From assembly GCA_951406725.2 (NCBI GenBank), contig OX597820.1:101432001-101496000 (forward strand): a stretch of 64,000 nt of DNA, read 5' to 3'. Under the pieces are notes generated by a model, which was given only the letters and a program-made list of their open reading frames with translations, was not told the origin of the DNA and searched no databases. Origin of the DNA: Octopus vulgaris. Lineage: Eukaryota. The position numbers and the translations under genes are program-made. How positions within the stretch are numbered: the first letter of the stretch is position 1; the number at the start of each line of letters is the position of its first letter. This document shows positions 690-59,975 of this stretch, piece after piece.

Positions 690-1919
690 CTGAAATAAAA
701 ATAAAACAACTATATGAAGAACATAACAGAGAACCTATATGACTAAAATATTGTGTGTCTTTTAGATAGGAAAGACTATAGGGGTACCACTGCAAAGTTC
801 TGTTGTCAAATAATGTGTTTAGGGTAAGTTTGTTGGAGCCCACCCCATACCAAGCAAAGAGTTAACGTCAACAATGTAAGCTAACAAAACACCCTTCAAC
901 TTTACAGTAATGTTGCTGTGTGCAATAATATGGTATTCTTTATCTTATGGCACCAATTTACAATCGGGTAGATTTCAATGGGTTGTCTGGTATCCTACAT
1001 TGACTCAAACCAATCATGCTGTCATATATAGCATAGTTATAAGCTAAATAGTATAATTCAAGAAATTCAAGGCCTAAACATTAGGAGGCTTGTAAACAAC
1101 ACACACAAAAAAAAATGTCCAGTAACTGTAAACAGACAGCATGAAAAAGTACAACTTACTAATGTATGCATAGTGTAACAGTTTATAATACTGAAACGAG
1201 ATCTTCCAAAAAGCTCAGTTAAAACAGCCAAGAAACTGTTCTAAGCACAACATGGTACTCCAACACTTGGCAACTTACACTACATTAATACTGGTTTCAG
1301 ATTTTGGCACAAGGCCAGCAAGAGGAGCTAAGTCGATTACATTGACCCCAGTGCTCAACTGGTACTTATTTTATCGACCTGGAAAGGACAAAAGACGAAG
1401 TCGACCTTGGTGAAATTTGACAAATGAAATGCAGCAAAGCACTTCGCCTGACATGCTAACAGTTCTGCCAGCTCGTCACCTTATGCTGTACACTAATTTT
1501 AATAACAGCGTTGTAGAATTGAAGTGTGCAAGTAGGGTAAAGTCTCTGATGTGGGTTTTGTTTCTGGCATTTCATTTCACAGGTGCTGCAAACATAATTT
1601 CCAACTGTATACTATGAGCTAAGTCACCCACACATCACTTCCCTTTTGTAACATACTTAGAGATTATGATATTTCATAATGACTTTCAAACAACTCATTA
1701 AAAGTCACGAGATGATTTATATATATATATATATATAATGTGACCGCGTGTATACCGTTGGTGATTTTTTCCCCTCTGTCTTCCCTTCTCCTATGTTTCC
1801 GACGAAGAGCTCTGCTCAAAACGTTAAACCCTCCTTCTTTCCTGAGCGTCCAATGATACTATATTTGTTCCACGTCCTCGAGTTGTTGTGTTTTTTTGTG
1901 CTTTCATGTTTGGATTTAT

Positions 1920-1958
<39 letters not shown>

Positions 1959-2245
1959 AATAATCGTCGCCCTTTTCAAGCCTAGCCAGGCTTATGGGCC
2001 TAGTTTCCATGATGTATGTGTTCACCCCAGCTGGACGGGATGCCAGTCCATCGCAGCGTTACTCAAGAAACAGGAAGAGAGAGTGAGAGAAAGTTGTGGC
2101 GAAAGAGTACAACAGGGGTCGCCACCACCCCACTGCCAGAGCCTTGTGGAGATTTAGTTGTTTTAGCTCAATAAACACACACAACGCCCGGTCTGAGAAT
2201 CGAAACCGCGAGTCTGCTGCCCTAACCACTGGGCCATTGCGCCTC

Positions 2246-2281
<36 letters not shown>

Positions 2282-5200: not shown

Positions 5201-8200
5201 TGATGCAGTCCTTGGGTTTGTGGGACTTTGTAAAACCATCCAGTCCATGACAACACAGTCGAACAGGGATGTTAAATGACGATGAAAGATCAGTGGAATA
5301 GTGTCTATTAGAGGGTGTGGGAATATGAGAACACCAAAATGAATCTTAGAATTATCTTAAGTTTCTATATTTTGAAATAAATGAGTTGAAATACTACTCA
5401 CTTTTCAATGAGAGGAACTAAAATCTCCTTCATGTTTTCCAAAATTGTTTCCTTCTTCTTGGGGTATGCATTAAACATATCTTGTAAACAGGTGATCTGA
5501 TCATTCTAGACCAATAAAAAAGCAGTTGTGATTGAATTAAAAGAAAATTATTAGAAAACAGATTGATAATAATTTAGCGCTCAGTCAAACTGTCCAATCC
5601 AAGCCACCATGGAAAATGGACATTAAAAGACGAAGATTTCTGTTTTTATACATTCTCATTATTTTAATAGTAGTAAAATGGCTATGTAGATATTCTATTA
5701 GCCTACTAAGTCATTATAGGTTTTGACTTGAAATCCACTGTGAGGGAATTGTTTCTGGGCAGATAACATTCTGCATTATTTCAATTTATCTCATCACACG
5801 AAGGTTGCAAGATCAATAAGCAAAGTTAGCTGTAAAAAAACCCAAAAAAACTAGCATCTCATTCAAGGGAAAGAAATTCTCTCATTCACTTAACATGAAA
5901 ATAGAACAAGGCCTGTAAAAGCTGAGAGCATATCATACAGTAACAGGGTTACATACATTTAGGGAGGAGAAAGGGACAATCAGTTACATCACCCCTACTC
6001 TTATATTTGACTAATTTTATTTTAACAACCCTGAGGAAGTCAATCTTGGCAAGATTTGGATCCAGAATGTATAAGGATGGAACTCAACACTGCGAAGCAT
6101 TTTGTCCAACAGTTTATCAATTTTGCTATTCTATGGTTCTCCCTGATAACAATGAAAAAAGAAAAAAACAAAAACAAACTGTAAAGCAAGAATGATTATA
6201 ATCACAGAATTATTCCTTTAACTAAGGATTTCTGAATGACTCAGGTACGTACACTTAAAAGGACGCAATGATGTTTATTAATGGAGAGTCTGAAAATACT
6301 GAAGAGATTGCAATAATACCTTCAAAAACTTATAAGTTGCACCATAGAAATCCTCCAAGAGTGCTTGGCGTTGTGTTGCATTTGCATATTCATTAAATGT
6401 ATACTCAATGATTTCTGATGCTTCCTAAAAATAAATGAAAATACATGTTTTAAGGTCAACACACAATATAGTCCATGTCTTCTGAACTGCTTCACAATAA
6501 TTATGAAGTGAGGGGGGGGAGAGGAATGAGGTGACTGTAAGTAACTGTCTAAGGAACTGGACCTACAGAGTGGCTTCAATTTCCAGTCAAAGCCATTTCA
6601 CTTCAATTATATTACTAATGCCATTAAGAAAATGTATGAGAATTATACTTCACTTGTCTCTTCTGTAATAAATCTGGACAACTGCACCATTTCCATATAT
6701 TGTGATATAATTCTTAAGTTTTGAGGAACAGGAAGGAATAGGTGCAGGAATGGCTGTGTGGTTAAGAAGTTTGCTTTACAACCAAGTGCTTATGGGTTCA
6801 AATACCATTGCACCTTAAACAAGTGTTTTCAACTATAGTCCAGAGCTGACCAAAGCCTTATGACTAAATTTGATGGACAGAAACTAAAAGAAGCCAATTT
6901 TGTGTGTGTGTGTATGTATGTACATACATATATGTGTGTGAGTTTGCGTTTCCTCGTCTTGACATCATGAGATATTTGTAAACAAATGCTACTGGCATTT
7001 AAGTAGAATGCCGTGTTTCCAGTTTCCAGTAAAATGATTTCTAGCCATGGGGAAATACTACCTTATACGGAAACAGGTAAGGGCTGGTGGCAGAAAGGGT
7101 ATCCAGTGGTAGAAAATCTGTTTCTAAATTTCATCTGAGCCATGCAAACATGGAAAAGTGGATAGTAAAATAATGTTGATTTGAAATATTTCAAAATCAG
7201 AGTTTGACACAAGCAAAGTGAAGGAAGATTCAACCATATTTATTAATAATACACATTCCTTGTGCACAAACAGCAGATATTGATAGCAGCAATATCAATA
7301 TCTTATTTTGCATTGTATTAAAATTTTTGTAGCAAAGTTAGACATCTCTATCATTGTCAAACACCCATGTGCCATGCCAGCAAGGGTTGGACTGTTTGAC
7401 AAGACTTGACAGGTCTAAAGACTGCATTGAGCTCTAATATTTGCATTGGCAAGGTTTCTAAGATAGGATGCCCTTTCTAAAACCAACCACTTTACAGTAT
7501 GTACTGGGTGCTTTTTTCAAGTGAGATCAGAATGCAGCCTGTAGCATAAATGTGGCTACAGTAGAGAAGGAAGTCGTGGCTTTCTGCTATGGGATGAGAG
7601 GTTTAAATGAAAGAAAAGGGTCCAGAACAGAACAGGTTTCTTGATATAGTGAAAGTACACAGCAACTCACATTATAAAAAAGAGGGTGGGAATGATTTAA
7701 GTGGAAGTAAAAATCAATAAAAAATAATGGTGTCAACCTCATGCTGGATTCCATTGTCAAACTAGTTGATTTGCTGTATAAGATTACTACAACTCTAATT
7801 AGAAATACATGTGCTAATTTTTATACTCACTCTGTGTCTAATAAGTCTACTTGCTTGGCTGCAAAGTGACTTAAATACTGCATTTCGTTCAGTCTTTGAG
7901 CTGTAAAAGAAATTGAAATATAATTGAAACCAATCTAATATTAAAACAACACCAATGCATATATTAGGTCTTTAATTCTAGTTTATAAAAAATAAAATTA
8001 TAAAGGCATCTTTTCGTTTTTCTTCATAAACAAGCTGAATTAGATACTTCTCGTCCAATGGACCATACTTATTCCGTTCCTGTAAAATCTATTCCCAGGT
8101 ACATTTTTATATTAAAAATGTGACATTTTCATTTGAGGGACCAACTGATCTTCACAATAACATTCCTGTTTTCTTTAACCTAAGAACAATGCCATTCTGA

Positions 8201-17200: not shown

Positions 17201-20200
17201 ATTCCTCAACTTTTTAAAATCCTTTATTTCCTCTTTCGCATTTTTATTAGCTTTTTTTGTTCGTTTTGCATCTATTACAAAGAGAGAAGAGTAAAATATT
17301 AGAAACACAAAGTAACACAGATTAAAATACAATAAAACAAGAACATAAGATATTTCTTATTAACTCAGTAGCAAAATTAGTACTTATCAAATTCATTTTT
17401 GTGATTTTCTTTGAAGGAAGAAGGGTGGAGATACCTTCCTGTGATAAAATAAAGTATCTGTAGGCTATAACATTCAAAACTCGTCTGGTTTATATTTTTA
17501 ATCATCTTATAGTCAGGAGAAGAGGTGGAACCTACTACTCTTTCGAAGGCCTTTAAGGCTAGCAGGATGGAGGGAAGGAAATATCTTCAAACCAGGGATC
17601 TTGCCTGAATACAAGCAGCAGAATATGGCTCTACTAAAAGAATCCAAGGTAGCAAATGAAAGAGTTTTTATATCTGACAACAGCTTAAGTTACCCACCCA
17701 AGAAGGCTAATTTGCAAGATTTGAACTTAGAACACAGAGCCAGAACAGATACAAAGTAGCCGATCCATTGTTCTTACAGTTCTGTTAATCCATCAGTCTA
17801 GATTAGTACTTTTTTTTTAGTGACCTTTGAAAGGTTGAAAGGCAAAGTTGAAAGTCATAAGAAATAAATTATATCAGGTAGTGTATTGAAGACAAGTTGA
17901 AAGATTGCAAAAGTTATAATCAGGATTATACTTGGCTTAGAAAGTTTTCTCAGGAATTAGTATATCTCTAAAGAATCTTTTAGGATATCGTTGGTTACAG
18001 TTCTTTATGAAAATGAGTATAGAGATCAAACTATTTTGATTATAATCAGTGAAACATGGGCTGTGACTTTAGAGCACATGCGAAGGCTTGAAAGAAATTA
18101 AGCTAGCACGCTCCACAGGTTGTGTAATACCAGTGTGCACATATGATAGAGTGTAAATGTCTTAAGAGAAAAATTGGGTATTAGAAGCATCAGATGTAGT
18201 GTGCAAGAGAAGACTGTGCTGGTAAGGTAATGTGATGCATAAAGAAGTGCTGATTTCTAACTGTGGAAGCAATAGACCCAAAAAGATGTGGGATGAGGTG
18301 GTAAAATATGATCGTTGGTTGTTGAGTCTTACAGAGGTGATGACAAGTGACCTAGACTTCTGGCAATTTGCTGTGCTTGAGATGACATGTCAAGCTAAGT
18401 GAAATCATTGTGGCTAGAGCTGGAGACATGTAAAAGATGCCCAATGGTCTGTAAAGTGGTTGGTATTAGGAAGGGCATCCAGTCATAGAAACCAAGCCAA
18501 AACAGATAGGAGCCTGGTGCAGATCTCTGGTTTGCCAGTTCCAGTCAAACTGTCTAACCCATACCAGCATGAAAAACAGATGTTAAATGATAATTTGCTC
18601 AGAGTTCAAATGGTAGATACACTGAAGAGTGATGAAAGCTATCACAAAAAAAAAAAAAAAGGAAAATATATATCCTATATTTCAACTTCAGCTTTAACAC
18701 GTCTAACATCATTCTAGATTATGCTACAAATGTATCATTCTAAAAAGTTCATATCTAAATCAAAACTTTTCATTATAATTTCATGTAAGGAAGATTTGAT
18801 AAACAACAGCTTAATAATTCTAATTTTTAACACCAGACCAGAAATTTTGAAGGCAGAGGAAAAATCAATTACATTGAAACCTGTGGGTGACTAATTACAT
18901 TTTTTTTAGTGACCCTGAAAGGATGAATTACAGATGGAAACATCCTTCCTCTTGTTAAGTATTACCTGTTTTTCAAGAAAACTATCAATGAAGGTATAGA
19001 GGAAATGTCAACTAACATTACTATCTGTAGCTCAGCACAGAATATCAACACCCACATCTGTATGCGACAGGCTTTGTAGTTTCCACTAACCAAATTTACT
19101 CACAAAGCACCAGCCAGGACTGTAGTAAAAGGTGCTACATAGTGGGACTGAACCTGAAACTACGTGGTTGCAAAACAAACCTGGTAACCATATAGTCATG
19201 CATGTGCCTTTTTGATATTTTGTTAAAACCCACCACATTTAATACACAGTGTATTTCATTAGAAATAAACTATGTACGAATTTTAGTGACAAAAATATAA
19301 GGAGTGGCTGTGTGGTAAGTAGCTTGCTTACCAACCACAGCCTTGTGAGTGGATTTGGTAGACGGAAACTGAAAGAAGCCCATCATATATATGTATGTGT
19401 GTGTGTGTGTGTGTTTGTCCCCCCAACATCGCTTGACAACCGATGCTGGTGTGTTTGCATCCCCATAACTTAGTGATACAGCAAAAGAGACCAATAGAAT
19501 AAGTACTAGGCTTGCAAAGAATAAGTCCTGGGGTCAATTTGCTCGACTAAAGGCGGTGCTCCAGCAAGGCTGCAGTCAAATGACTGAAACAAGTAAAAGA
19601 GTAAACTGTGACCAAAATAATGCAGTGGTTTTGGCAAAATCTGTTTTGCTTGTATTTCGAAACTGTATATATTACATGAGGGTACTGTTTAATTCTTATT
19701 AAAATTCAAAGGGAAAAATAGGCATCTGAAGGCCACTTACCACCAGCTGCTTCTTTGCTTGTCAATTTATTTTTCAACTTATTTCCTTTCAGTTTAGCTG
19801 GAAGTGATTTACTGTCTTTCAGTTTCTTCAACTTTTTCATTGCTCCCTTAACTTTCACCTGAGGTAAGAGAACAAATTAAGAATTTGTAAACATAAACTG
19901 AAAACAAGACAACATTTGATAAGGATGCTTTTTAAGCGGCATGAGCACTCGAAGGGTCACCAAGTAACTTGCAAGGCAAGGAATCTGAGAAGTGGGGGGG
20001 GAGCATTGTAGGAGGTGATCTTGCATCAGATATTGAAAGGTTATATAACAAGACAGAGAGAGGTGGAACATGGTTACCAAGCCAGAGAGAGAGAGAGAGA
20101 TAACGAGAGAGCAGGAACAGGTGTGCTACACAACAAGCTTCTTTTCCATTTCTGTCTTGCAAATCTGCTCACAAGGTTTTGGTTGGTCTGGAGCTACAGC

Positions 20201-23192
20201 AGCAGACACTTGTTTAAAAATATATTCATCATCATCATCGTTTAACGTCCGTTTTCCATGCTAGCACGGGTTGGACGGTTCGACCGGGGTCTGGGAAGTC
20301 AGGAGGCTGCACCAGGCACCAGTCTGATCTGGCAGTGTTTCTACAGCTGGAAGCCCCTCCGTGAGTGTAGTGGGTGCTTTTTACGTGCCACCGGCAGAGG
20401 GGCCAGAGGAGGCTGCCAAATGGCCACGATCGGTTGGTATTTTTACGTGTCACTGACATGGATGCCAGTCAGGCGGCACTGGCATCTGCCACATTCGGAC
20501 GAACGTGTCACCGGCACAGGTGTCTTAACTACTATTTCCATTCAATTGTCATTTGCTTTTGGTATTTTGTTAGGTATATTGTCTGTTCTTATTTCCATGT
20601 GGGCATGGGTTTGGTAAAATATGTTATTAAGGTACTGCTTTACAGCCAGATTACATTTCTTAACACTTACTTTTCGAGCAATGGATCTCCTAATTTCACC
20701 TGATTTCAAAGACACAAAACAAGTAGATAAGTTATTGACAAAAAGTGCTTACAGCACTGATGCTGTGACTTTCAAGTGAATGCAAATGTAAACAAGCAAA
20801 CACACATCATCATCGTTTAACATCCACCTTCCATGCTAGCATGGGTTGGACAGTTTGATAGGAACTGACCAAGCAGAAGACTGCACCACACTTCTGTGTC
20901 TGTTTAGGCATGGTTTTTACGACTGGATGGATTTCCTAACACCAATCACCATATGGAGTGGACTAAATGCTTTTTACATGGCACCAGTACAGATGAGGTT
21001 AGTTTTGGCATGGTTTTTACAGTTGGATGCCCTTCCAAATGCCAGCCACTTCACATTGTGGACTGGATGCTTTTTAAGTGACACAAGCACTGGAAGGGTC
21101 CCTAAGTAGCTTGCAAGGCAAGGATCTCTGAGAGTAGAGGAGGGCACTGGAGGAGGTGATCTTGTATCAGATGATGAAAGGTTATAATGAGACAGAGAGA
21201 GACAGAAACAGGTATCTTGCTATAGAGGAGGTACATGGTTACCCAGAGAGAGTTAACAAGAAAGAGAGCAGGAACAAGTGTCCTATACAACAGGTTTCTT
21301 TTCCATTTGTCTTCCAAATTTGCTCGCAAGGCTTTGGTTGGTCTGAAGCTAGAGCAGTGGACACTTGCACAAGGTGCTGCATACTGGGACTGAACCTAAA
21401 ACCACATGGTCGGGAAGCAAACTTCTTAACCACACAGCCATGCCTGTGAATTTATCACTTTCTCGTAAACTCCAAATCTAGTGAATCAATGAAGTGAATG
21501 TTATTTCACAAACCTACATAATCTATTAGACTTGTGCCTCCTCATATTCCCAGTTTCTATGTAAGCAGACGAGATAAGTTCCTTTACCTGGAGGCAAACC
21601 TATTACAGGTAAGATCAACAGGAACAGCATCAAACTCAGTACCACAGGCCATCTAAAATACTCAATCAATTTCATGATGCTGCTTACAATGGTAAATTGT
21701 TCCTACCCTGCCTTTAAATGTCTGTTATGCATACAATACATTACTGGTGACAGGGCGTCAACCGCAACTGGTCTCTTCATGTTGTTGTTCAGGAGCCTGT
21801 CATCTATGCTCTCAACATCATCATCATCGTTTAACGTCCGTTTTCCATGCTAGCATGGGTTGGACGGTTCAACTGGGGTCTGAAAAGCCCGAAGGCTGCA
21901 CCAGGCTCCAGTTTTGATCTGGCAGAGTTTCTACAGATGGATGCCCTCCTAACGCCAACCACTCCGTGAGTGTAGTGGGTGCTTTTTATGTGCCACCAAC
22001 ACAGGTGCCAGATGAGGCTGGCGAACGGCCACGCTCGGATGGTGCTTTTTACGTGCGACCGGCATGGAGGCCAGGTGAGGCTGGCAACGGCCACGATCGG
22101 ATGGTGTTTGTTACGTGCCACCTGCACGTAGACCAGTCAATGCGGTGCTGGCTACGGCCATGTTCGGATGGTTCTCTTATGTGCCACCGGCACTGGTACC
22201 ACAAACTACAAATTCCATTGATGTTGATTGATTTCGATTTGATTTTTATGAAGGAGATAATAACAGTACAACATAGTAATGAAACCACTTTGATCATTAC
22301 AATCTAGTTGTTCATGACTGAACAAATGACTTATGATTAAAGGTATTAAATCAATGACGAGCCTTTCTTTCCAGGCATTGTCTATCTAGGACTATATTTT
22401 CTTATGTGTCTTTAAGATGATAGGACAAAATTCCATGGTGATTTCATTTCTATTTATAGCAAGTTCAATAAAGGTGAATTCAATCCAGTTTCATAGACAT
22501 TTCTATCTATTTTATGTATTTTCATTTATCTAAACGCCTGAGTCCTGAAATTATTAAGGAAAAATGATAAAAACAAATGAAAATCTTACCTTTAAAGATT
22601 TTGTTTTCTTTTCCATCTTTTTCACCTCTGCAGTCTGTTCTTCACATCTTTCACTTGGCTGATCATTTTCGTCATGTTCTTCAATAACAGAACATTGTGG
22701 GGTCTTAGCTGCCATCTTTTGAATCCTCATCGATAGTTCAGCCCCATCTGGTTGGCCTCGTGCACTACAGACAGCCTTCTCCCAAGTTACATCTAATTTA
22801 CTCTTAGATTTTTTCGAGAAAGTACTATCTAATGTATTATCCAGAACTGGATGTATCGAACTGATGTCGTTAAGTGGTCCAAGAGAAGTGAGAAAATCAG
22901 ACCTTGTGTCATTTTTAGATTTTTTGGCATTTCCTTCTTCGTTTGCAGTCTCCAGACCGCTATCTGAACTAACGTTTTTGTGTTTACGTTTCTTGGCGTT
23001 TGCTGCTTTGTCGATCTTTTTCTTGGGAGCTGGCATTGACGGTTGAGCAAGCTTCATAGGCTCTTTCTGTATAATGCTGTCTCCTTCGGGTGGACGACGC
23101 AGACTTTGTGATTGAACATCGAGACGAGTGGAGTGGCGGCGGATCTTTTTATGTTTTTTAGTTGTTGTGACGGCGGCCTCGGGACTTTCCAT
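555..23192 (-). CDS. PUM3: Pumilio homolog 3 (Puf-A/KIAA0020), spliced; 12 coding exons in window, 3' part continues beyond position 1
   Basis: Exons 22590-23192, 19741-19858, 17151-17271, 14546-14621, 13221-13314, 11995-12061, 7831-7900, 6320-6424, 5402-5505, 3885-3960, 2674-2772 and 555-689 all have GT-AG borders and compatible phases (1668 nt, 556 aa). The joined peptide (KKIWEELR..AFTHDGARVLQCLIQFG..SKYAKFIVRKFLSYG..HSRDGARVAMKCIWYGNTKDRKVMVKSFK..LLATFDVVDDTKL) matches Puf-A/PUM3 as I recall it. Confidence 0.95.
1960..2248 (-). mobile_element. tRNA-derived SINE with V domain; related copies at ~13680-13920(+), 34900-35110(-), 46930-47170(-)
   Basis: Minus strand has A box TGGCCCAGTGG and the V-domain motif CTGCGATGGACTGGCATCCCGTCCAG. 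Confidence 0.75.
2324..2544. mobile_element. piggyBac-type MITE (TTAA target, CCCTTTA TIRs); second copy at 12257-12485
   Basis: TTAACCCTTTA...TAAAGGGTTAA termini; the two ~225-bp copies are homologous. Confidence 0.85.
2674..2772 (-). CDS. PUM3: PUM3 coding exon (EMITELREGIVNMVHSRDGARVAMKCIWYGNTK)
   Basis: tag| acceptor, |gtaaac donor, 99 nt; conserved H-x2-DGARVAM-x-C-x-W motif. Confidence 0.95.
3885..3960 (-). CDS. PUM3: PUM3 coding exon (SMLTHSIIHRLFSEYFLYADKAMRT)
   Basis: cag| acceptor, |gtaagt donor, 76 nt, phase 2 to 0. Confidence 0.92.
5402..5505 (-). CDS. PUM3: PUM3 coding exon (NDQITCLQDMFNAYPKKKETILENMKEILVPLIE)
   Basis: tag| acceptor, |gtgagt donor, 104 nt, phase 0 to 2. Confidence 0.9.
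6320..6424 (-). CDS. PUM3: PUM3 coding exon (EASEIIEYTFNEYANATQRQALLEDFYGATYKFLK)
   Basis: tag| acceptor, |gtatta donor, 105 nt, phase 0. Confidence 0.92.
7831..7900 (-). CDS. PUM3: PUM3 coding exon (SKTERNAVFKSLCSQASRLIRHR)
   Basis: cag| acceptor, |gtgagt donor, 70 nt, phase 2 to 0. Confidence 0.9.
9202..9488 (-). mobile_element. CR1-clade LINE 3' fragment with (TTAAC)n tail
   Basis: Minus-strand translation MVLGLKHLSYEERLKTLDLYSLEIR*RRGHLILAHNII...FFSPAPERRLRGHSEKL is typical of the CR1 ORF2 C-terminus. Confidence 0.8.
9625..11632 (+). mobile_element. 5'-truncated RTE-clade LINE (RT C-terminal half, 3' UTR, (GAT)n tail)
   Basis: ORFs 9674-10417 and 10339-11001 joined by a frameshift near 10405-10413: QFGF, FVDMEKAFD, GVHQGSVLSPLLF, LYADD, FRYLG, RLRWYGHVARM, RGRGRPRKTW; 63-64 bp tandem units at ~11270-11455; GAT tail. 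Confidence 0.93.
11995..12061 (-). CDS. PUM3: PUM3 coding exon (KVVEMVESKYAKFIVRKFLSYG)
   Basis: tag| acceptor, |gtaagt donor, 67 nt, phase 1 to 2. Confidence 0.92.
13221..13314 (-). CDS. PUM3: PUM3 coding exon (MAFTHDGARVLQCLIQFGNMEQRATLFDELK)
   Basis: cag| acceptor, |gtatgt donor, 94 nt; Puf repeat motif. Confidence 0.93.
14546..14621 (-). CDS. PUM3: PUM3 coding exon (HDLTVDKRVKLCNDLMDISKGKTQM)
   Basis: cag| acceptor, |gtgagt donor, 76 nt, phase 2 to 0. Confidence 0.9.
15228..15611 (+). mobile_element. tRNA-derived SINE with CORE-like body; copies at ~4448-4780(+), 19300-19604(+), 38189-38605(-), 40835-41180(-), 49805-50157(-), 57424-57885(-)
   Basis: A box TGGCTGTGTGG, B box GGTTCAGTCC, TCTTGGGCAAGT motif, internal (TA)/(TG) tract, AGTAAAAG tail; many copies in the window. 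Confidence 0.85.
17151..17271 (-). CDS. PUM3: PUM3 coding exon (DAKRTKK...KKIWEELR)
   Basis: tag| acceptor, |gtaaga donor, 121 nt, phase 1 to 2. Confidence 0.9.
18047..18592 (+). mobile_element. Older degenerate RTE LINE 3' fragment
   Basis: Diverged nucleotide similarity to 10613-11000 (cagtgaaacatgggc...) and to the 3' tail at 11480-11610. Confidence 0.7.
19741..19858 (-). CDS. PUM3: PUM3 coding exon (VKVKGAMKKLKK...KEAAG)
   Basis: cag| acceptor, |gtaagt donor, 118 nt, phase 0 to 1, open frame. Confidence 0.85.
21815..22246 (-). mobile_element. RTE 3'-end copy; related copies at ~12482-12750(-), 20227-20520(-), 27773-27942(+), 39229-39584(+), 50547-50750(-)
   Basis: Closely similar to the RTE 3' UTR at 11140-11632, including the tandem units and (CAT)n/(GAT)n tail. 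Confidence 0.85.
22590..23192 (-). CDS. PUM3: PUM3 first coding exon (Lys-rich, low-complexity N-terminus, 201 codons)
   Basis: ATG at 23192 follows acceptor ttgcag|cg; donor aaag|gtaaga at 22590/22589; phase 0. Confidence 0.85.
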
Positions 23193-24507
23193 CGCTGCAA
23201 AGAATAATCACTTAATTAAAAACAGTAACACGATAAAGCTACAATTAAAAGAAACAAACATACAAGACACATAATACACAAATCATAGACAATGTACTTA
23301 AAATACAGGAACATGATTTTACTTTTTACACAGAAACAAAATTTAAAGAATTCAATATTTTAAAGAATTCAATATTAGAAAAAGTTATCCCTCTCATAAA
23401 CGCATTACTTTTCAGTTAAATGAAAGTGTCTGCATAGATCCAATCGTTATAGAATCAATACATACCGAGAGCGCGTATATTTTAAGATGTCAAGGAGCAA
23501 CTAGTTAAATAATAGACCAGGCAATATATATATAGTATATATATAATAGAAATTACCTTTGTCTAAAGCAAATAAAAATACAACTCTACTAGACTGATAT
23601 AAAACAGGCGGCTGATATAATATCACGTAACTTAAAGAAAGGAATCGATGTAGTGGTGGTGGGGGAGAGAAGGAAACAAAGAAACCGTTTTAAGAAACTG
23701 AATTTTTGAAAAACTGGGCCAGCATCTTACAAGAGTAACTGAAATACGAGATTTTTTTGCTGATTCAGTTCTACAACAATTTTCGTAGATGATTATCCAA
23801 TGTTAGGGGTGAAGTTTGAGAATAAATTAAAATAAATTATCCAATTAAAATCAATCGCGCGCTTTAAATGGGATTTAATAAAAAAGAAAGAAAAGCAACA
23901 TCCAACAGGTTGATATTAAACTAGTATCAAACGAAAATTCAACTAGTGAAATAACTGTAATATATTACATTAACTATCCAGGAAAAAAATATTGGTTAGA
24001 CCATTTTTTTTTTTAGAATAGAATTTAAATCGCATATCACGAGAATAATAATAAAAATGGTTTCAATTTTTGACACAAGGCCGGTAATTTCAGGGAAGGG
24101 ATAAAATGATTACATCGACCCCGCGAGGATGCAAAGCAAAGTCAATGCTGACGGAATTTGAACTCAGAATGTAAAAACGGACGAAATGCCGTTAAACATT
24201 TTCCTCAGCGTGTTAACGATTTTGCCATCTCGTCGACTTCACAACAATAATAAAAGTAATATTTCAAATTTTGGTACAAGGCCAGCAATTTTAGTAGCTG
24301 ATTACATCGACTCCAGTACATGACTGGTATACTGTTTCATCGACTCTGAAATTATGAAAGGCAAAACTAAACTCGGAAGGATTTGAACTTAAAATGTAAA
24401 GACTTGAAACAAATACTTCAAAGCATTTTCCCACTTCTAACGAAATAATAAAGCTTTGAAAGAAAAGAACTAATCTAAATATATTATATTTTATATGTTC
24501 TTGTTGA

Positions 24508-25040: not shown

Positions 25041-44177
<19,137 letters not shown>

Positions 44178-44609
44178 TTGTTTATGGAAATAAGACTTCT
44201 TTTGAAGGAAAAACGTTATTGATGAATGAAAAATTTTATTCTGTAGAAAGCTTTTTATTCTATAGAAAATTTAAACACTCGTCCAAATTCTATTTCAGTG
44301 CCACTATATTTTGTATACATTTTATTCTATTTTTGTTTTTTTTATAATTTTTTTTTCTGAAGTATATATTAAGGGTCCAAACAGATTTGCTAACCATTGT
44401 AGTTTGAACAATATATATATTATACATTGTATAGTTTTTATGGAGCAACGCGATTCTTTGAGAAATATATATACAAAATTATATATATATATATAATAAT
44501 TGATATAGGATAAAATTTTTTTTGGGAAAAAAATTTTATCAATGGCCAGCATATCAAAAAATGCCTTTAAAGGTAAAATTTATACATAATTTACAATTAT
44601 CTCGCGTAT

Positions 44610-44670
44610 TTGCCGCTGAAGAGGGGAAAATTTCTTGTGAATTAACCCCGAAATTGGACCAATACGGTAA
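44610..44670 (+). ncRNA. Minimal type I hammerhead ribozyme (Penelope-like repeat) in AK3 3' flank
   Basis: Stem I TTGCCG/CGGTAA, core CTGAAGA (44616-44622), stem II GGGG/CCCC with extension AATTT/GAATT, GAAA (44650-44653), stem III A-TTGG-A-CCAA-T, cleavage triplet AUA. Confidence 0.8.
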
Positions 44671-45543
44671 TAACAAATTTTTTAGAGATTTCTATCGGTT
44701 TGTTTCAAGATGCATAAATTTAATGGTTATCGACAATTTCGGCGTATCTGGCATTAGAATTTTTCTTCTGTCCTTATCTTGTAAATTATATATATATATG
44801 TAATTTTTGTAAATCATCTTGCCAGACATTCAAAATTTTGTAAACATTTTTTTCTGTTTTGTTTATGAAATCTAAGTAAAACAATTGTGTATTTTTAGAG
44901 ATCAGATGAAGTGTATTTTTAGAGATCAGATTTTTTTAGCTTTCACTGGTAAATGGTTCCAAGTCATGTGACTAAACTCAGAAAATGACATATCACAAGA
45001 AAAAACTTTTAAAAACTTTATCTTATATTTGTTTTAACAAATAGTTTATATATATTTTCACATGTATCGTATTTGATCTGCTACTTCAGTATTGGGTTTT
45101 AGGTTTTTTTTATTTTTTTATTTTTATGCTTTCAGATATATTCACTGGTTCTGACATATTGTCAGATCAATCGACTGAAGTTGAGCTTCCTTTTTCTTTT
45201 TCTATTAATTTCTTTAAAAAAAATGATATAAGGCCAAAAAAGATACAACTCTAAATGATGTAAGTTGAGGTATGACTGTATATTATTTTCACAGAGAAAT
45301 TATTCTGATTTTATATCAATAATACCAAACCATTATCATAGAGGTCTTCTCATATTGCCTATTTCTTGTCATTACATTCACTTATCTTACTAATATTTTT
45401 GGGAAAGGCATGAGCGTCATACAATCTTATTTCAACTATAAATATAAATATCTTTATGTGTATAAAAGATTGTTGTTATTGCTATTATTGTAGTATGCTA
45501 TAAGAACAAAAGTTAAAGTTCTTGGAAAGACAAAAACTGGTTT

Positions 45544-45613
45544 TGATATTTTGATTGACATAATGTTCACCTTATTAACAACCCTAGGAAAGGCATGATG
45601 TCACAGTATATCA
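45544..45613 (+). ncRNA. Candidate pri-miRNA hairpin (best copy of a triplicated unit)
   Basis: 70-nt hairpin with basal stem TGATAT/ATATCA, TGACAT/ATGTCA and a ~10-nt loop; its 3' arm TAGGAAAGGCATG is shared with neighbouring copies. Confidence 0.45.
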
Positions 45614-48600
45614 TTTACCTCATTTCTTAAGATATAACTTTGTTCTCATTCAACCTTCTTGTTATTGCTGTGGCAAACGTTGTTATAAGAGGTAAAATCT
45701 CACTGATCTAAGACTGTAGAGTGATTTTAATTTCTGGCTGAAGCCATTCTATTTTTCTTCTACCATTAGTGCCCTTAGGAAAGGCATGCTTCTCACAACT
45801 TCTCATTGTCTGCTTTTTTAAAATGCGGGACGCATGTGCTTTGTGGAAAAACTACCTCTAATATTCCATTAAATGTTATCTCTCTTGTGGAACAAAATAT
45901 ATTTTGTTGGACTCATGATTATTGATTAAATATGTTATATGTAATCTGAATTTGATGTTTGACAAGAATGGCTTCTCATATTTTGCTAGTGTGTGATTGA
46001 AAAGTACAAACATTATAACATTATAACATTTTATTTCTCCACCCAACAGATGTAACGCTTCATATTTGACTTAAAATCTTATCAGGTTTGACATAGTCAC
46101 TCATTTTTTGGGGAGAACGGTCAACAAGTATCAATAACACCCTGGCTCAGTTTAATTAATTACACAAATTTCCCCCTATATTCACTTTGTGGCTAAGGAA
46201 GAAATTATTATGTATGTTGTAGCAGGAGAATGGCAGTGGTCTTAAGAATATGCTGGATTTATTTGTAGCTTCTGTTGCTGACATTCAGCACAAGAAGCTT
46301 TATTGTCGATGTCTTGTATATCACTTCATCTTCAAGTGGTATTGGTATGAAACTATTCCTTTTAGATTGTAGACTCTGTCACTCATAATGTTTTTGTATT
46401 CTAGCAGTTATATAAAAAAAAAATGCAATGTTGTGATTATAAGAAGAAAAAAATGTAGGTGTGGAGGCTAATTACTTGATATAGTATTGAATTATTATTC
46501 ATTATGTATGCTTGGAAATCCAGCACAAACTTCAGTTGATTCTAATGAAGTAATTAAAGTTACAGTCAACTGGGCTTCAGAAGGGTTTTTTTAATATTTA
46601 TTGTCATATAGTACCAAATTTTGAGGTGAAGAGTATGCTTATTGTAAGAATTCTAGTAAGGGATTGGTAGACATGTTGTCAGTTTTGGTGTGATGGAAGT
46701 TAGTTTTGATTTATGCATAATTCAATCCCAGACAGTATAGATGGCCAAAAATAAACCCTGAAATGTATCGGGTAATCATTATGACTTTGTTAGGCCAGCA
46801 ACAAGTTATTGAGTTAATGAAGATTGTTTAAATCTATATAATTGTAAGAAAGAATTAAAATGTATGTTTTGTGGAAGAAAATTACAGAAATTATAAAACA
46901 GTAAAGTAAATCCCTTAGACATTACTGCTTTAAGTCCTAGGACTCATGGGGCTGGTATCTGGTGTCTATAGTGTATAAGTGACCGAGATTACAACATTTT
47001 CCCTGAATGGGATGCTAGTCCATTGCAGAGTTAGTCATGAACGAATGAGTGGACTGGAGCAATGTGAAATGATGTTTTTCTCAAGAACACAATGTACCGT
47101 TCATCTGGGAACCAAAACTATAATCCTGTAATCATGAGTGCCACACCCTAACTACTAGTCTACATACCTTCTGCTATAAAACTTGACAACTATAATAAGA
47201 CTAAACTCAAATGTATGCAGTTAATGAATGAGGCAAGTAGAGGTAAACTAGAAATTCCTATTAAGCTGTGGTCTGTGACACTACTGTATGTAATTCATGG
47301 AGATTTATAATTCTGTTTCTTTTTTTTTTATCACTGCCTTGAGAAAGGTCTGAATGTCTGTTGTACAACCTTTTTTCCATTCCTGTATAAGGTCTGATTT
47401 GTTTTTCCTATGAAAGGGATTATTATTATTCAAAGATCTTAAGGCAGCAAACTGGCGGAATCATTTGTGCAGCGGATAAAATGCTTAGTGGCATTTCTTT
47501 TGGCATTATGTTCTGAGTTCAAATTCCACTGAGGAGACGGCGACTTTGTTTTTGATCCTTTCATGGGTCAATAAGATAAGTACCAGTTGGTCACTGGGGT
47601 TGATGTAATTGACTTACCACCTCTCTCTAAATTTGCTGGCCTTGTGCCAAAATTTAAAATTATATTAACAGTGTTGAGCTGATATAATCGTTAGCATGCT
47701 GGACAAAAATACTGCTAAGTATTTTGTTTATCTTTACATTCTGAGTTCAAATCCTGCCGAGTTGACTTTGCCTTTCATACTTTCAGGATCAATAAAACAA
47801 ATACCTAAGCACTCGTGGGGTCAATGTAATTGACTAGCCTCTTTCCCCAAAATTTCAGGCCTTGTGTATAAAGAATTTTTATTATAGACTTAACTCCATT
47901 TGGGATATCCCAAGTAGACAATTCCTATTTCGTTATGTAAGTATATCAAATTTTCTGTCATGGAATTGTTTTAATGCAAGCAAAAGCTTTGTGTAACGCC
48001 TGATTCAAGCTTTCACTGAGATTCTCTGCAAAGATGTATAAGAAGCATGGAAATGGGTCTAGTTCACGAACAAAATGTTTTGTTCCTCATATCTTCCTAG
48101 CTAAGGCTAACGATAGGTTGATGATAAATACCTTTTAATATAGTCAGATTTCCTTAAATTTTTTTACTGAGGTAGAAACTTAAGAGCCTAATCTATTATC
48201 TTATATAGATTTTCCATCCATTTTGGGTGACTTTCTTGATCTTATACGGTTGCATATTATTTATGCAATTACTTTTTTTTTATATTTGTTAAATGTGTTT
48301 TCAATCACAAACCACTCAATCATGAAGCCAAGGAGTAAGGAAGACTAAGTTATGTCCCTTAACTCTAATATATATATATATATATATATAAAATTGAAGA
48401 AGAGTAGAAATTGATATTAATCAATTAAAACCAGTGGCCTAGCATATTAAAAAAATCCGAAGATTAAAATATTTTTTACATACAAAATTATATCTAGCAT
48501 ATTGACCGTCCACTTTTAGTGGTCAGTCCTTTAAATTATGTATATATATATATATATATATATATGAATATATGGAATTTGATTTATTAAGTATGAATAT

Positions 48601-48690
48601 TGCTTGTTCTCAGGCTACAAAGCCAAGATATACTACATGTATACACAAATACATGCATAATATATGCACATATATATATATATATATATA

Positions 48691-48806
48691 TTTATTATAT
48701 AGAAGGAGCTTCTACAGGACTAGTACTGTTTCATTCAAGAGAAATCTTCAGGAAGATTTCTCTTGAATGAAACAGTACTAGTCTGTAACTCCTTCTATAT
48801 AATAAA
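48691..48806. repeat. Near-perfect long palindrome
   Basis: 32-bp perfect arms 48718-48749 and 48752-48783 around a 2-nt centre, plus 18-bp outer arms. Confidence 0.95.
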
Positions 48807-49537
48807 TTAATCTTACTCTGCTATGTATTGAGTACCTTACTTACTGTGGTTAACCCCGAATCAACCCGGGACCTACATATATATATATATATATATATAC
48901 ACCATGGACTCTCCCATCTTTAGATGATGTACAAGGGTTCAGCAAGAAATTATCAAACAAACACACAGATGATTTGTTTATAGTGATCAAATGTTTGTGT
49001 TCACATAAGCTCATTCCCTCCATCAAATCGACATTACCTGTACAGGTGCACCATGTGCCACATGTCAGATAACGAAATAATCACAAAGCAATGTGAAATG
49101 TAGTGATTTGCTCAAGAACACAATGCAACGCCTGGCCTGGGAATCGAACTCATGATCTTGCAATCATCAGTGCAACACCCTAACCACTAAGCCATGCACC
49201 TTCACACACACATATATATTTATATTCATACATATCCTTCTATTTATAAACACTAATGATAAGGTAGCTACTGAAGGATCTGCTCTCACTGGCTGCTGCT
49301 GCTACTGAGGCAGTTTTTCATCTCTGATATTTATTCCGTTTTTTACACAGCATGTTCATAAGAGATGTTATTTTAGGACTAATATCAGATATATTTTTAT
49401 ATTGTTGAGCAGTATATTACTGATTATGGCATATAACAAATGTCTATATTCTGATTGATTATATATACAGTGTATATATACGTGTATGCTTCTTCCATGG
49501 GTATGAGTAAGTATCTCATTTACTTCTTTGCCACATG

Positions 49538-49596
49538 TATCACTGATGAAGGGAGGGTTCTTTTTGAACTAACCCTGAAATCGGTTTGATATGGTA
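49538..49596 (+). ncRNA. Minimal type I hammerhead ribozyme, paralog of 44610-44670
   Basis: Stem I TATCA/TGGTA, core CTGATGA (49543-49549), stem II AGGG/CCCT with extension GGTTC/GAACT, GAAA (49577-49580), stem III A-TCGG-T-TTGA-T, triplet AUA; downstream flank homologous to 44671-44800. Confidence 0.75.
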
Positions 49597-49753
49597 ATAA
49601 TGGAATTTTTTAGAGATTTCTGTTGGCCTTTTTTCGAGTAGTGTGCGTACTGGGGAAAAAAATTATATGGTAAATGGACAATATGTCCAATTTTCGGCAT
49701 ATTTGGCATTAGAAATTTTTTTTCGTTTGCCCTTATTTATAAGTTGTATATAT

Positions 49754-49788
<35 letters not shown>

Positions 49789-51592
49789 TCTATATATATA
49801 TATCTTTTATCTTCTATTGTTTCAGCCATTTGACTGTGGTGATGGTGGGACACCTCTTTGAAAGGTTTTAGTTGAACAAATTGACCCAGAACTTATTTCT
49901 TTTAAAGCCTAGTAGTGATTCTATTGGTCGTTTTTGCCAAACTGCTAAATTATGGGACAAACCCCCCCACACCCCACACACATACATACATACATATATA
50001 CATATGAATGACAGGCTTCTTTCAGGTTTCTGTTTACTAAATCCATTCACAAAGCTTTGGTTGGTCTGAGGCTATAGCAGAATACGCTTGCCCAAAGTGT
50101 CACACTGTTGAATTGAACTCAAAACCATTTGTTTGGGAATCAAGCTTCTTACCACACACACGCACGCACACATTGTACATGACAGAAGAAAATAGTGTGA
50201 AATGGTTTACTCATAACAGCTTTACATGTGTTTCAGTGACTATTACATAATCATTTACATCATATTCAATGCTACGTGTGACCACTTCTTTTTCAGAAAC
50301 AGTATAAGAAGTGAGGAAGCATGTATCATGATAGATGCTTAATAGCTGTTTGAAATAGAGACACTGTAGATTAGTAGCAGGTATGTAATCTGGTCTCAGC
50401 TTAATAGATTACATAATTAATTTCCAATCATATAGATCAGAGTGTAATATAAAAGTTAAATGTAGAATGAATAGTATAATAGTAGTGAATCATACAGACA
50501 CATACATATAATACACATGCATATATATATATATATATATATATATCATCCTCGTTTAACATCTGTTCTCCATGCTAGCATGTGTTGGACGGTTCGACCG
50601 GGATCTGGGAAGCCAGAAGGCTGCATCAGGCTCCAGTCTGATCTGGCAGTGTTTCTACAGCTGGATGCCCTTCCTAACGCCAACCACTCCGTGAGTGTAG
50701 TGGGCGCATTTTAAGTGCCAGGCGAGGCTGGCAATGGCCATGATCGGATTGCTTGAATAATATCCATAGCTTCACATTTTTATATGTGTGTGTGTGTATT
50801 TATATGTAGATTTGGTGGATCAAATAGAAGACACAGAATGCATGTGATAAAAATATATATGTTATTAAATGCTTGCAAAGTTTCATAGAGCAAGAGCCAA
50901 GAGTTTTGTGCATGGACTTCATGAAACAGTTTGATAAGTGACTGCATAAAACTATGTGCTTGAGTGCTTGAATCATTTTGTAACTTTCATACAATCAAAA
51001 CAAAGAAGTATATATATACACACACACACACACAGACATACACACACACACAGTATATACATAATGTTAATGCACAAAACAAAATACATAAAATTCTTTG
51101 AGAACATTAATCATGGACAAACGAAAGAAAATATTTTGATTTAAATATACTACTGGTTTCAAACATTTTTACAAAGCAATTTAGTCTTGCTGTAGGAGAA
51201 GGGAAAATGAGCTGATATAAATTACATTAATCTTTTATGCTATCAGTTCTAGAAGTTCACATGTTTTTCATGTGAAATTTGTAAGAAAAATGTGTGATAT
51301 CATGGAAATTTAATTCAGTTTAATTTATTTCAATTGTTTTCCACTCTGTAAAGTGGTTGACATTAGGAAGGGCATTCCACCATAAAAAAAACCTCTGGTT
51401 TGCCAACTCCTGTCTAGCTGTCCAACCTATGCCAGCATGGAAAAGAAATGTTATATGATAAGTTTTCCCTTCTCTTACAGTTTAACTAAATCATTTTATA
51501 AAATGATTGAAATCTATAACAAATTTGAATAAAATGTAGAAATTTCTTTCATTTGTTCATAATGATATTCTCAAAGCATTTTATTCTATTCG

Positions 51593-58681: not shown

Positions 58682-59170
58682 TCAGGTATTCCCATAAGTA
58701 ATGTCCGGACGTCTATATTTTCAATTTGTAAACGCTTTGACATAATTTTAGAATGTCTAACGGCATTAAATAATATTTATATGTATTTGGACATATTGGA
58801 ACTAATTAAATTTCATTTTACAGCAAAATCTAATTGAAATTTTTTCTAATTAAAGCTCTTCAAACATGGAAGTGTATAAGGAACATTTGAGGCACATAAT
58901 GCTTTATGAGTTTAAAAAAAGGGAACTCTGCAACTGAAGCGACTCGAAATATCCGCTCCGTTTATGGAGAAGAGTGCCTGAATGAAAGAACTTGCAGAAG
59001 ATTGTTTGTAAAATTCAGAAGTGGAAATTTCAGCCTTGAAAATGAGGCCCGAACAGGACATCCGATTGAGTTTGCTGATAAGCTCCTTTTGGTAGAACTT
59101 GAAAAAGATCACGGAGTTTCAGTTGAAGAATTGGCAAGCAAGCCTTGTTCAAGCCTTTCTGTGATGTATT
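58682..59170 (+). mobile_element. mariner 5' fragment
   Basis: MEVYKEHLRHIMLYEF / KKGNSATEATRNIRSVYGEECLNERTCRRLFVKFRSGNFSLENEARTGHP with a frameshift. Confidence 0.85.
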
Positions 59171-59202
59171 TGAATTAAATATGATACACAAATGTGTGTA
59201 TA

Positions 59203-59245
<43 letters not shown>

Positions 59246-59249
<4 letters not shown>

Positions 59250-59975
59250 GGAAACATCTAGCATCATAGTATCATAATTTTGAAATATCTATAAAACCGT
59301 CAAAAGCTTGTTTATTTTTATGTTTTTTTTTTTTATTTATTATTTTTGTTGCTTAATACGTTTTGCTAAAATTGCTGTTTCTTTTCAGATATCATCAGAA
59401 AAAGGTAATTAAAATTCATTAAAATGACAAATCTATTGAACTTTCAAAAAGGTCAAATTGTTGGTGCTCGTATGGCAGGCGCTAGCGTAACGAAAACAGC
59501 TGAAATGTTTGTTGTATCAAGAAGAACTGTCTCGAAAATAATGACAGCCTTTGAGAAAGAGGAAAACACCTCCTCGTCGAAACAAAACTCCGGAAGAAAA
59601 CTTTTCAGATAGGGATCGTCGGACTCTTACGCGAATTGTTAGAAAGGATCACAAAAGTACAGCTCCCCAAATTACTGCAGAGCTTAATGACCACCTCGAG
59701 AACTCAGTTTCCACGCGAACTGTTTGCCGGGAGCAGCACAAAGCTGGATTTCATGGGAGAGCTGCAATCAGAAAACTACCACTTTCAAAAACAAACGTTG
59801 CGAAGCGTTTAGAATGAAGTAAAAACCTACAAAACTGGTCCCTAGAGCAGTGGAAGAATGTTATTTTCTCGGGCGAGTTACCCTTTACCTTATTTCCGAC
59901 CACCGGTCGAGTATACGTGTGGAGACAGCCAAAAGAAGCATTTAACCTAGACTGCCTTCTTCCAACTGTTAAAAA
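59246..59975 (+). mobile_element. Tc1-like transposon 5' fragment
   Basis: FQKGQIVGAR..GAS, DRDRRTLTRIV, AKRLE*..WKNVIFS..VWR motifs; frameshifted and truncated. Confidence 0.85.

Follow-up and report, generated by a model that had tools for sequence, protein, structure and literature searches.

Two covarying type I hammerhead motifs downstream of an adenylate kinase gene in Octopus vulgaris, probably solo insertions of a retrozyme-like family

Two type I hammerhead motifs lie 4.9 kb apart on the forward strand downstream of an adenylate kinase gene in Octopus vulgaris, within a 64,000-nt stretch of contig OX597820.1 (positions 101,432,001 to 101,496,000 of assembly GCA_951406725.2) that is referred to here as the window. 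Each motif heads a non-coding unit of about 180-220 nt with a homologous tail of 110-160 nt, and the two units probably arose by separate solo insertions, each from its own diverged branch of a single retrozyme-like mobile family, a reading to which we assign a probability of about 0.55. Two independent insertions had been the fallback of a first-pass annotation of the window; the shared tails, the (TA)n flanks and the empty middle now make them the best explanation. The coordinates of all features are collected in Table 1.

Table 1. Features of the window (positions count from its first nucleotide)
Feature	Position	Strand	Remarks
Dispersed fourth copy of the triplicated unit	6554..6668	+	without intact 11-mer; 39 kb away
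Adenylate kinase (AK3/AK4-like) coding exon 1	25539..25683	+	boundaries read from sequence
Adenylate kinase coding exon 2	37906..38025	+	
Adenylate kinase coding exon 3	40335..40507	+	best PDB matches AK3, AK4 (E 4e-17 to 5e-17)
Adenylate kinase coding exon 4	41403..41521	+	
Adenylate kinase last coding exon with stop	44063..44177	+	splice sites and frame taken from the sequence
Hammerhead copy 1, type I	44610..44670	+	AUA triplet; predicted cut after 44664
Unit 1 tail	44671..44778	+	homologous to unit 2 tail; continues into (TA)n repeat
Old tandem triplication, ~188-nt unit	45240..45815		invariant 11-mer at 45402, 45587, 45778
Dispersed repeat copies	47046..47866, also 49087-49252		other copies in window
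Perfect inverted repeat, 32-bp arms	48718..48783		strongest hairpin observed between the ribozymes
Hammerhead copy 2, type I	49538..49596	+	geometry as copy 1; predicted cut after 49591
Unit 2 tail	49597..49755	+	about 27 nt longer; self-paired; ends at (TA)n 49756-49802

A descriptor scan of both strands returned these two motifs as the only matches in 64 kb, with 4927 nt between their predicted cuts; in shuffled windows a strict match was never obtained (0/30) and one loose match appeared in 3/30. Both copies have the three helices of a type I hammerhead, with helix I open, and the core CUGANGA, GAAA and UH at 12 of 12 positions. Helix I of copy 1 has 6 bp, helix II has 4 bp followed by a 2x2 internal loop and a 5-bp distal stem, and helix III, which is palindromic, has 4 bp. 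The copies differ by 13 substitutions over 36 paired columns, distributed as four double and five single changes in the helices, and none of the 18 pairs is broken. The scan and the copy-to-copy comparison thus bear out the first-pass description of copy 2 as sharing the orientation and fold of copy 1 with a diverged sequence. The compensatory pairs listed there are likewise confirmed (G-C to A-U in helices I and II, U-A to C-G in helix III), as is retention of the AUA triplet and of the core; a fourth double change, in distal helix II, lies outside that list. The simulated probability of 0/18 broken pairs is about 1e-4 at the observed transition share and 0.9% if only transitions are allowed. 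The shuffle control of the covariation tool gave 40/500, on an alignment of two sequences with which it is unable to go low. Since the 13 substitutions in paired columns broke none of the 18 pairs and all 12 core bases are retained, the comparison supports the earlier proposal that the hammerhead fold was under selection. Rfam returned no family at threshold anywhere in the 64-kb window, and its hammerhead models gave no match on either motif even up to E 10. A uridine at position 1.7 and loop adenines are kept in both copies. They would allow a contact between U1.7 and a loop-2 adenine, on which a literature search found no paper.

Beyond the motifs the two copies align at 67% identity (blastn, E 6e-12), and the homology of the tails taken by themselves was equalled in 0/200 shuffles. 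The homology begins at about the ribozyme 5′ edge and stops at (TA)n. Upstream it is at most weak, with 47/200 shuffles scoring as well over 250 nt and 27/200 over 430 nt, and a weak similarity in the 45-60 nt directly upstream (17/1000 and 20/1000, uncorrected) indicates that the homology lacks a sharp 5′ boundary. A TA run lies within 130 nt upstream of each unit (9.7% of background positions) and another 150-230 nt downstream (6.6%). The tails diverge by 32% and include an 18-nt identical block, longer than expected under uniform drift (P 0.017). Neither a third copy, intact or decayed (nhmmer; next model match 17 bits, E 0.36), nor head-to-tail tandem copies were found in 64 kb, so that both units are solo, unlike other repeats in the same 64 kb, which recur many times. 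No clear target-site duplication surrounds the units or the whole segment, where only short low-complexity matches were seen. Terminal redundancy within the units is a weak hint (33/3000 shuffles, uncorrected); circular permutation between the units was rejected, as it came down to a 16-nt match reached in 33/3000 shuffles, one of many tests. Scans of metagenome, viral and prokaryote collections with the family pattern gave no match, as expected for an animal repeat.

The predicted folding of the two copies comes from an energy model that ignores tertiary contacts and Mg2+. The active fold of copy 1 lies within 1-8 kcal/mol of the predicted optimum. For copy 2 the model favours an inactive rod fold by 9-14 kcal/mol in 25 of 25 sequence contexts. 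Copy 2 probably cuts poorly, and AK3 read-through RNA could still be cleaved incidentally by copy 1. In the consensus fold of both copies the core pairs with the 5′ strand of helix III, which is not formed. Two copy-1 motifs co-fold as a dimer hammerhead (-36.7 versus -26.2 kcal/mol); a heterodimer hammerhead of copies 1 and 2 was rejected, not being the predicted co-fold. The spans from TA run to tail are more stable than shuffles (4/60 and 1/60 as linear RNA, 1/60 and 0/60 as circles), and copy 1, folded from its ribozyme through the end of the tail, has ordinary stability (18/60 shuffles as good). For self-pairing of the monomer, 0-1/60 shuffles did as well for copy 2 and 1-20/60 for copy 1, depending on the boundary.

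If the units came from a mobile family, the hammerhead of the source element would have cut multimeric transcripts into monomers, and the palindromic helix III of copy 1 would also permit a dimer fold. Monomers would have been circularised and then copied back into (TA)n sites by a Penelope-type reverse transcriptase. Selection on the fold would have acted within the source-element lineages, the 4.9-kb interval would represent normal 3′-flanking DNA of the host, and the triplet would be an old duplicated repeat of no relation to the units. This reading is favoured by homology that is bounded by the ribozyme 5′ edge and (TA)n, by the TA runs flanking both units together with the (TA)n target preference of Penelope-like elements (excerpts of PMC8557442), and by the stable TA-to-tail folds and the copy-1 dimer co-fold. 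It is also favoured by a middle that holds repeats and no reverse transcriptase or GIY-YIG match, and by a unit length and low GC that fit metazoan retrozymes, given as 170-400 nt and low in GC in passages of PMC7229834. Most eukaryotic type I hammerheads, moreover, are part of repeats (extracts of PMC3088659), and Penelope is an abundant family in coleoids (extracts of PMC8967140).

Several observations weaken the same reading. The "family" here has two members, with no third copy in 64 kb while other repeats recur; the units are solo with no clear target-site duplication, whereas known retrozymes form tandem arrays; and the 5′ boundary is not sharp, with only ordinary ribozyme-to-tail stability in copy 1. 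A second same-strand copy within 5 kb would be a 0.2-4% event for 1,000-20,000 dispersed copies in a genome that we take to be 2.7 Gb. Both copies would still be intact with probability 0.34 under 2% neutral decay, 0.07 under 5% and 0.004 under 10%, so that they would have to be young; across the 105 remaining repeat pairs of the window the median identity is 0.80.

The main rival reading, in which the two copies came from an old insertion or a local duplication and were then kept folded in place by host selection, is doubtful, although parts of the locus fit. Copy 1 lies on the sense strand of the adenylate kinase gene, whose last exon has no Pfam match, and its predicted cut falls 487 nt past the stop codon with neither AATAAA nor ATTAAA between the stop and copy 1. 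With copy 1 retained, cleavage would fall between stop and poly(A) signal of the AK3 pre-mRNA or of an isoform with a long 3′ UTR, and would lower that isoform or aid termination, in the manner of the mammalian Clec2 hammerhead. Both copies being fully intact despite the tail divergence, the absence of a further copy in 64 kb, the 18-nt tail block and the predicted nearness of copy 1 to its active fold all speak for retention. Precedents are described in extracts on the Clec2 3′ UTR (PMC6765202), on repeat-derived vertebrate intronic hammerheads (PMC3088659) and on an Arabidopsis pair less than 5 kb apart at a gene end (PMC7761336), but known cases are few. Upstream of copy 1 there are weaker variants of the poly(A) signal (AATGAA 44225, AATATA 44410 and 44464, GATAAA 44509) and the octopus 3′ UTR median is 350-380 nt (PMC9699675), so the AK3 mRNA may end before copy 1. 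Copy 2 is predicted to be misfolded by about 10 kcal/mol, and the two-copy consensus fold lacks helix III. It is unlikely that these are host-kept hammerheads of which copy 1, by cutting the adenylate kinase transcript, is an invertebrate counterpart of Clec2. The boldest form, with the 5′-OH product as precursor of three H/ACA-like RNAs and copy 2 closing the fragment, is hardly credible.

The interval itself contains the "triplicated hairpins" of the first-pass annotation (45340-45800), of which the triplication stands, any such 11-mer triple arising in 1/500 shuffles, and the hairpins are overstated. Shuffled sequences equalled the fold of unit 1 in 75/200 cases, of unit 2 in 6/200 and of unit 3 in 95/200, and the hairpin of unit 2, the only one to beat shuffles, is equalled by 5/40 random sites. 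A stable short-loop hairpin of ~60 nt is present in unit 2 only; the loop in unit 1 is 34 nt, and candidate-arm pairing in unit 3 amounts to 5 nt. The triplet has no Rfam match to a known miRNA family, and a search of literature supplements, in which mature sequences may be missing, did not find the 11-mer. The 11-mer is kept better than uniform decay predicts (143/200000 permutations); it may resemble the 5′ end of miR-71, a guide for U5 loop 1 and a p53 half-site. An ACA follows each 11-mer at 17, 14 and 15 nt (background 7.2% per position), spacings that are not independent because the units are homologous. ANANNA occurs at homologous places (45500, 45685) preceded by about 35-40 nt of hairpin and followed by about 100 nt, but the units lack the H/ACA architecture of two similar hairpins with an ANANNA hinge and a conserved consensus 3′ hairpin, and their 5′ pocket strands differ. 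The H/ACA rule places the ACA box 14-16 nt from the pocket top (PMC2613932), and the H/ACA-like features of the triplet appear partial. A 20-nt stretch upstream of copy 2 matches the triplet at blastn E 0.34. Descent of the triplet from decayed ribozyme units was rejected (65-91/100 shuffles score as well), and an HxFP-like peptide read from the minus strand in each unit is without Pfam support. Weak Rfam miRNA matches in the interval, which are far below threshold and coincide with AT repeats and with the perfect inverted repeat, were also rejected.

The first-pass annotation had proposed that read-through RNA cut at both sites would release a 4927-nt fragment with 5′-OH and cyclic-phosphate ends, able to circularise and to yield small RNAs from the triplet. 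The geometry fits, with both intact motifs on one strand; RtcB circularises such ends in vitro for 350-nt retrozymes (passages of PMC7229834); and the over-conserved 11-mer is followed by ACA near the H/ACA distance. Against this, copy 2 is predicted to be inactive, AATAAA occurs between the sites at 46750, 47791 and 48801 along with seven ATTAAA, the interval holds dispersed repeats (911/4711 of its bases have further copies within the window), and described retrozyme circles are much smaller. The released or circular miRNA precursor is therefore not supported and very improbable; the triplet also failed most miRNA-hairpin checks, and a fourth copy of its unit lies elsewhere in the window. 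It is also very unlikely that a single Penelope-like or LTR-retrozyme insertion, long dead and decayed on the inside, left the units as its terminal repeats (pLTRs or LTRs). Their direct orientation and few-kb spacing recall the Penelope pLTR hammerheads about 3 kb apart in extracts of PMC4209133, but six-frame searches of the interval found no reverse transcriptase or GIY-YIG match and only a sub-threshold Endonuclease_7 match (E 0.021), and no convincing target-site duplication surrounds the segment. Terminal repeats are identical at the start, so 32% divergence with intact ribozymes would need selection in place anyway, and a 4-bp helix III without an extra base at 9/10.1 is unlike metazoan minimal Penelope hammerheads.

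The solo-insertion reading places the units between described systems. As in the metazoan non-LTR retrozymes of Cervera and de la Pena 2020 (PMC7229834) and PMC7761336, the hammerhead is a canonical type I with helix III formed, heading a non-coding AT-rich unit near 200-300 nt with predicted self-pairing that in copy 1 depends on the boundary; some mussel retrozyme circles are also reported there with a blocked ribozyme fold. The octopus units differ from those retrozymes in being solo, 4.9 kb apart and without a target-site duplication found, and in a helix II with an internal loop and distal 5-bp stem. With the minimal Penelope-like hammerheads of Cervera and de la Pena 2014 (PMC4209133) and PMC8557442 they share type I topology, dispersed single motifs, a long helix II, (TA)n flanks and, in copy 1, a palindromic helix III. 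Unlike those in PMC4209133, they have a 4-bp helix III (there absent or 1-2 bp), no unpaired base between 9 and 10.1 and, in copy 2, A10.1-U11.1; unlike Penelope-like elements, they lack a linked RT/GIY-YIG frame. Among host-retained hammerheads, which include amniote intronic copies (PMC3088659), that of the Clec2 3′ UTR (PMC6765202) has its cut past the stop and before the first canonical poly(A) signal, as is predicted for copy 1; the octopus motifs are continuous rather than split and present in two copies. The Arabidopsis thaliana chromosome 4 pair (passages of PMC7761336) is also two hammerheads within 5 kb, one at a gene 3′ end, but is type III with the gene-proximal one antisense; at least one of the pair has demonstrated expression and cleavage, whereas the octopus cuts are predicted.

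Literature searches found no paper describing cephalopod hammerheads. If the units are ordinary insertions, they add to cephalopods a repeat family whose hammerheads have an extended helix II and which escapes Rfam. If they were host-retained, a housekeeping gene of a non-vertebrate would carry a self-cleaving RNA at its 3′ end, a rare case, and the role of isolated genomic hammerheads would become directly testable, with the two covarying copies as natural controls.

Scanning both strands of the 64 kb with a type I hammerhead descriptor returned two matches, copy 1 and copy 2, which align without gaps and are identical at 12 of 12 core positions; shuffled windows gave a strict match in 0 of 30 and a loose match in 3 of 30. 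Of 18 helix pairs compared between the copies, nine are unchanged, five carry one-sided changes, four have changed on both sides and none is broken; five of the 18 form a distal helix II stem past a 2x2 internal loop, which was included after the sequences were inspected and is likewise predicted by RNAalifold. All 13 substitutions in these pairs are transitions, and random scattering of 13 substitutions left all pairs intact in roughly one trial in 10,000 when the transition share was as observed, and in 0.9% with transitions only. The core identity has P 0.011 given a tail identity of 68.5%, and sliding the pairing partners lowers pairing to 25-47%; the covariation tool's own shuffle control, a weak one with two sequences, gave 40/500. 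Rfam hammerhead models matched neither copy up to E 10. Because pairs and core are kept despite the substitutions and pairing falls on sliding, selection on the fold somewhere along the path between the copies is well supported by the sequence comparison, as the first-pass annotation had proposed, and its two covarying motifs stand, on the same comparison, as real type I hammerheads.

Positions of the features discussed, relative to the window
Feature	Position	Strand	Remarks
Copy 1	44610-44670	+	predicted cut after 44664
Copy 2	49538-49596	+	predicted cut after 49591
Imperfect palindrome	44509-44540		32 nt, some 70 nt before copy 1
Shared 12-mer	44524, 49653		upstream of copy 1; copy 2 tail
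Direct repeat	44887-44931		21 nt
5' splice-site-like, strong	45258, 49505		just before triplet; about 30 nt before copy 2
Triplet	45240-45815		
11-mer	45402, 45587, 45778		
Fourth triplet unit	6554-6668		
Possible fifth look-alike	28236-28298		AK3 intron 1
AATAAA	46750, 47791, 48801		between the ribozymes
Perfect inverted repeat	48718-48783		32-bp arms
Near-perfect hairpin	48700-48805		contains the inverted repeat
Adenylate kinase gene	25539 to stop codon 44175-44177	+	five exons
Open frame	22554-23207	-	217 codons, splice-like ends
Reverse transcriptase remnant	9623-10417		with PHD-like finger; Pfam RVT_1 E 1e-25
Tc1/mariner transposase remnants	58900-59817		two

Homology continues for a further 110-160 nt past each ribozyme (0/200 shuffles), and in both units, each a hammerhead with its tail, it stops at a (TA)n repeat. 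Upstream homology was absent over 250 and 430 nt (47/200 and 27/200 shuffles), and the nearest 45-60 nt are weakly similar (17/1000 and 20/1000 shuffles, uncorrected). A TA run lies at most 130 nt upstream of each unit (background 9.7%), and the spans between TA runs, 265-281 nt as folded, exceed most of their shuffles in predicted stability. A search for target-site duplications gave nothing convincing, and pattern scans for the hammerhead family in metagenome, viral and prokaryote collections gave no match. The direct repeat, whose copies hold a 10-11 nt block common to both tails, is possibly a fragment of this element, with a model score short of significance, and the 12-mer, found nowhere else, would fit a more-than-unit-length insertion (P about 0.01, uncorrected).

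Our preferred reading, at a probability of about 0.55, is that the units are retrozyme-like mobile elements, which Penelope-type enzymes would move. The majority of eukaryotic type I hammerheads are located in repeats, according to PMC3088659, and the units agree with such elements, as described in PMC7229834, PMC7761336, PMC8557442 and PMC8967140, in their size, AT content, self-pairing and (TA)n flanks. This reading carries costs. The units are solo, not tandem, and neither a model of the two motifs nor an nhmmer search found a third copy in the window. A second copy this close would arise by chance in 0.2-4% of cases given 1,000-20,000 dispersed copies and an assumed genome size, a figure softened by the window having been chosen for the pair. 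Both copies must also be young, since the probability that both are intact, 0.34 when decay is 2%, is as low as 0.004 when it is 10%; the 105 other repeat pairs in the window have a median identity of 0.80. Retention of both hammerheads by the host, which we regard as possible but rather doubtful, would account for the solo units, the missing third copy, the close neighbour and the intactness, as well as for the position ahead of the first canonical poly(A) signal (AATAAA and ATTAAA are absent from the stop codon to the first cut, where four weaker variants occur), and it has precedents in PMC6765202 and, for an Arabidopsis pair, PMC7761336. Against it, copy 2 is predicted to misfold, and the mRNA possibly ends upstream of copy 1 because the octopus 3' UTR median is 350-380 nt (PMC9699675).

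Folding models, which leave out tertiary contacts and magnesium, bring the active fold of copy 1 within 1-8 kcal/mol, whereas the preferred fold of copy 2, a predicted rod with the core buried, lies 9-14 kcal/mol below its active fold in 25 of 25 flank combinations. This, together with a two-copy consensus fold in which the core pairs with the 5' strand of helix III, would count against easy activity. Copy 1 has a palindromic helix III, and a pair of copy 1 motifs is predicted to co-fold into the dimer hammerhead (-36.7 vs -26.2 kcal/mol); neither two copy 2 motifs nor one motif of each copy are predicted to do so. A double cut freeing a 4.9-kb small-RNA precursor, the function first suggested for the bracketing pair, would require an active copy 2, transcription across three AATAAA sites and functional small RNAs; with those sites in place and copy 2 predicted to misfold, it is very improbable. 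We give as little credence to the copies being terminal repeats of one dead element (PMC4209133). A six-frame Pfam scan of the interval found no reverse transcriptase or GIY-YIG remnant, and 911 of its 4711 bases recur elsewhere in the window. The inverted repeat is MITE-like, and with the longer hairpin that contains it (-63.9 kcal/mol, z -14) it would outdo the triplet as a small-RNA or editing substrate. No partner exon was established for either splice-site-like sequence.

The triplet, annotated at first as a miRNA-like cluster, is a unit of about 188 nt that was triplicated in tandem long ago (47-57% identity in alignment), since homology persists with the shared 11-mer (1/500 shuffles) masked, clearly for units 2 and 3 (0/300) and weakly for unit 1 (11/300 and 34/300). 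A fourth copy (profile E 3e-5; 0/300 shuffles), ranked first among 554 tiles outside the triplet and missing an intact 11-mer, points to a dispersed repeat; the possible fifth look-alike is very weak and not significant (nhmmer E 1.2). The hairpins of units 1, 2 and 3 were matched in stability by 75, 6 and 95 of 200 shuffles, that of unit 2 also by 5 of 40 random sites, and no Rfam family scored above threshold; with two of three hairpins like shuffles and a dispersed copy, the miRNA proposal is not supported. The 11-mer was also missing from the supplements searched of PMC9699675 (four files) and PMC11701709 (one file), a weak negative, as mature sequences are perhaps unlisted there. Its conservation beyond uniform-decay expectation (143/200000), an ACA 17, 14 and 15 nt downstream and an ANANNA box whose position units 2 and 3 share speak for some function and suggest H/ACA guides over miRNAs; against this, the hairpin proportions are wrong and the consensus 3' hairpin does not form. 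The triplet is probably a dead repeat; an H/ACA-like role and some other binding motif are each unlikely, and a miRNA slightly more so.

The setting is AT-rich animal DNA with abundant microsatellites and dispersed repeats. Pfam ADK matched three of the four adenylate kinase exons scanned, and the structures nearest to exon 3 are AK3 and AK4. The minus-strand open frame, without a Pfam match, probably belongs, as an exon, to a gene that is divergent from adenylate kinase. Among the sequencing-run matches listed, 20 of 24 contain all or part of the stretch and 19 at least half of its words, with seven studies and three organism labels represented, and one of these runs may come from the source sample. 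Such matches attest the stretch as genuine DNA and do not bear specifically on the ribozymes. No description of cephalopod hammerheads was found among the open-licence papers listed, and subscription papers or hammerhead-survey supplements may list these motifs.
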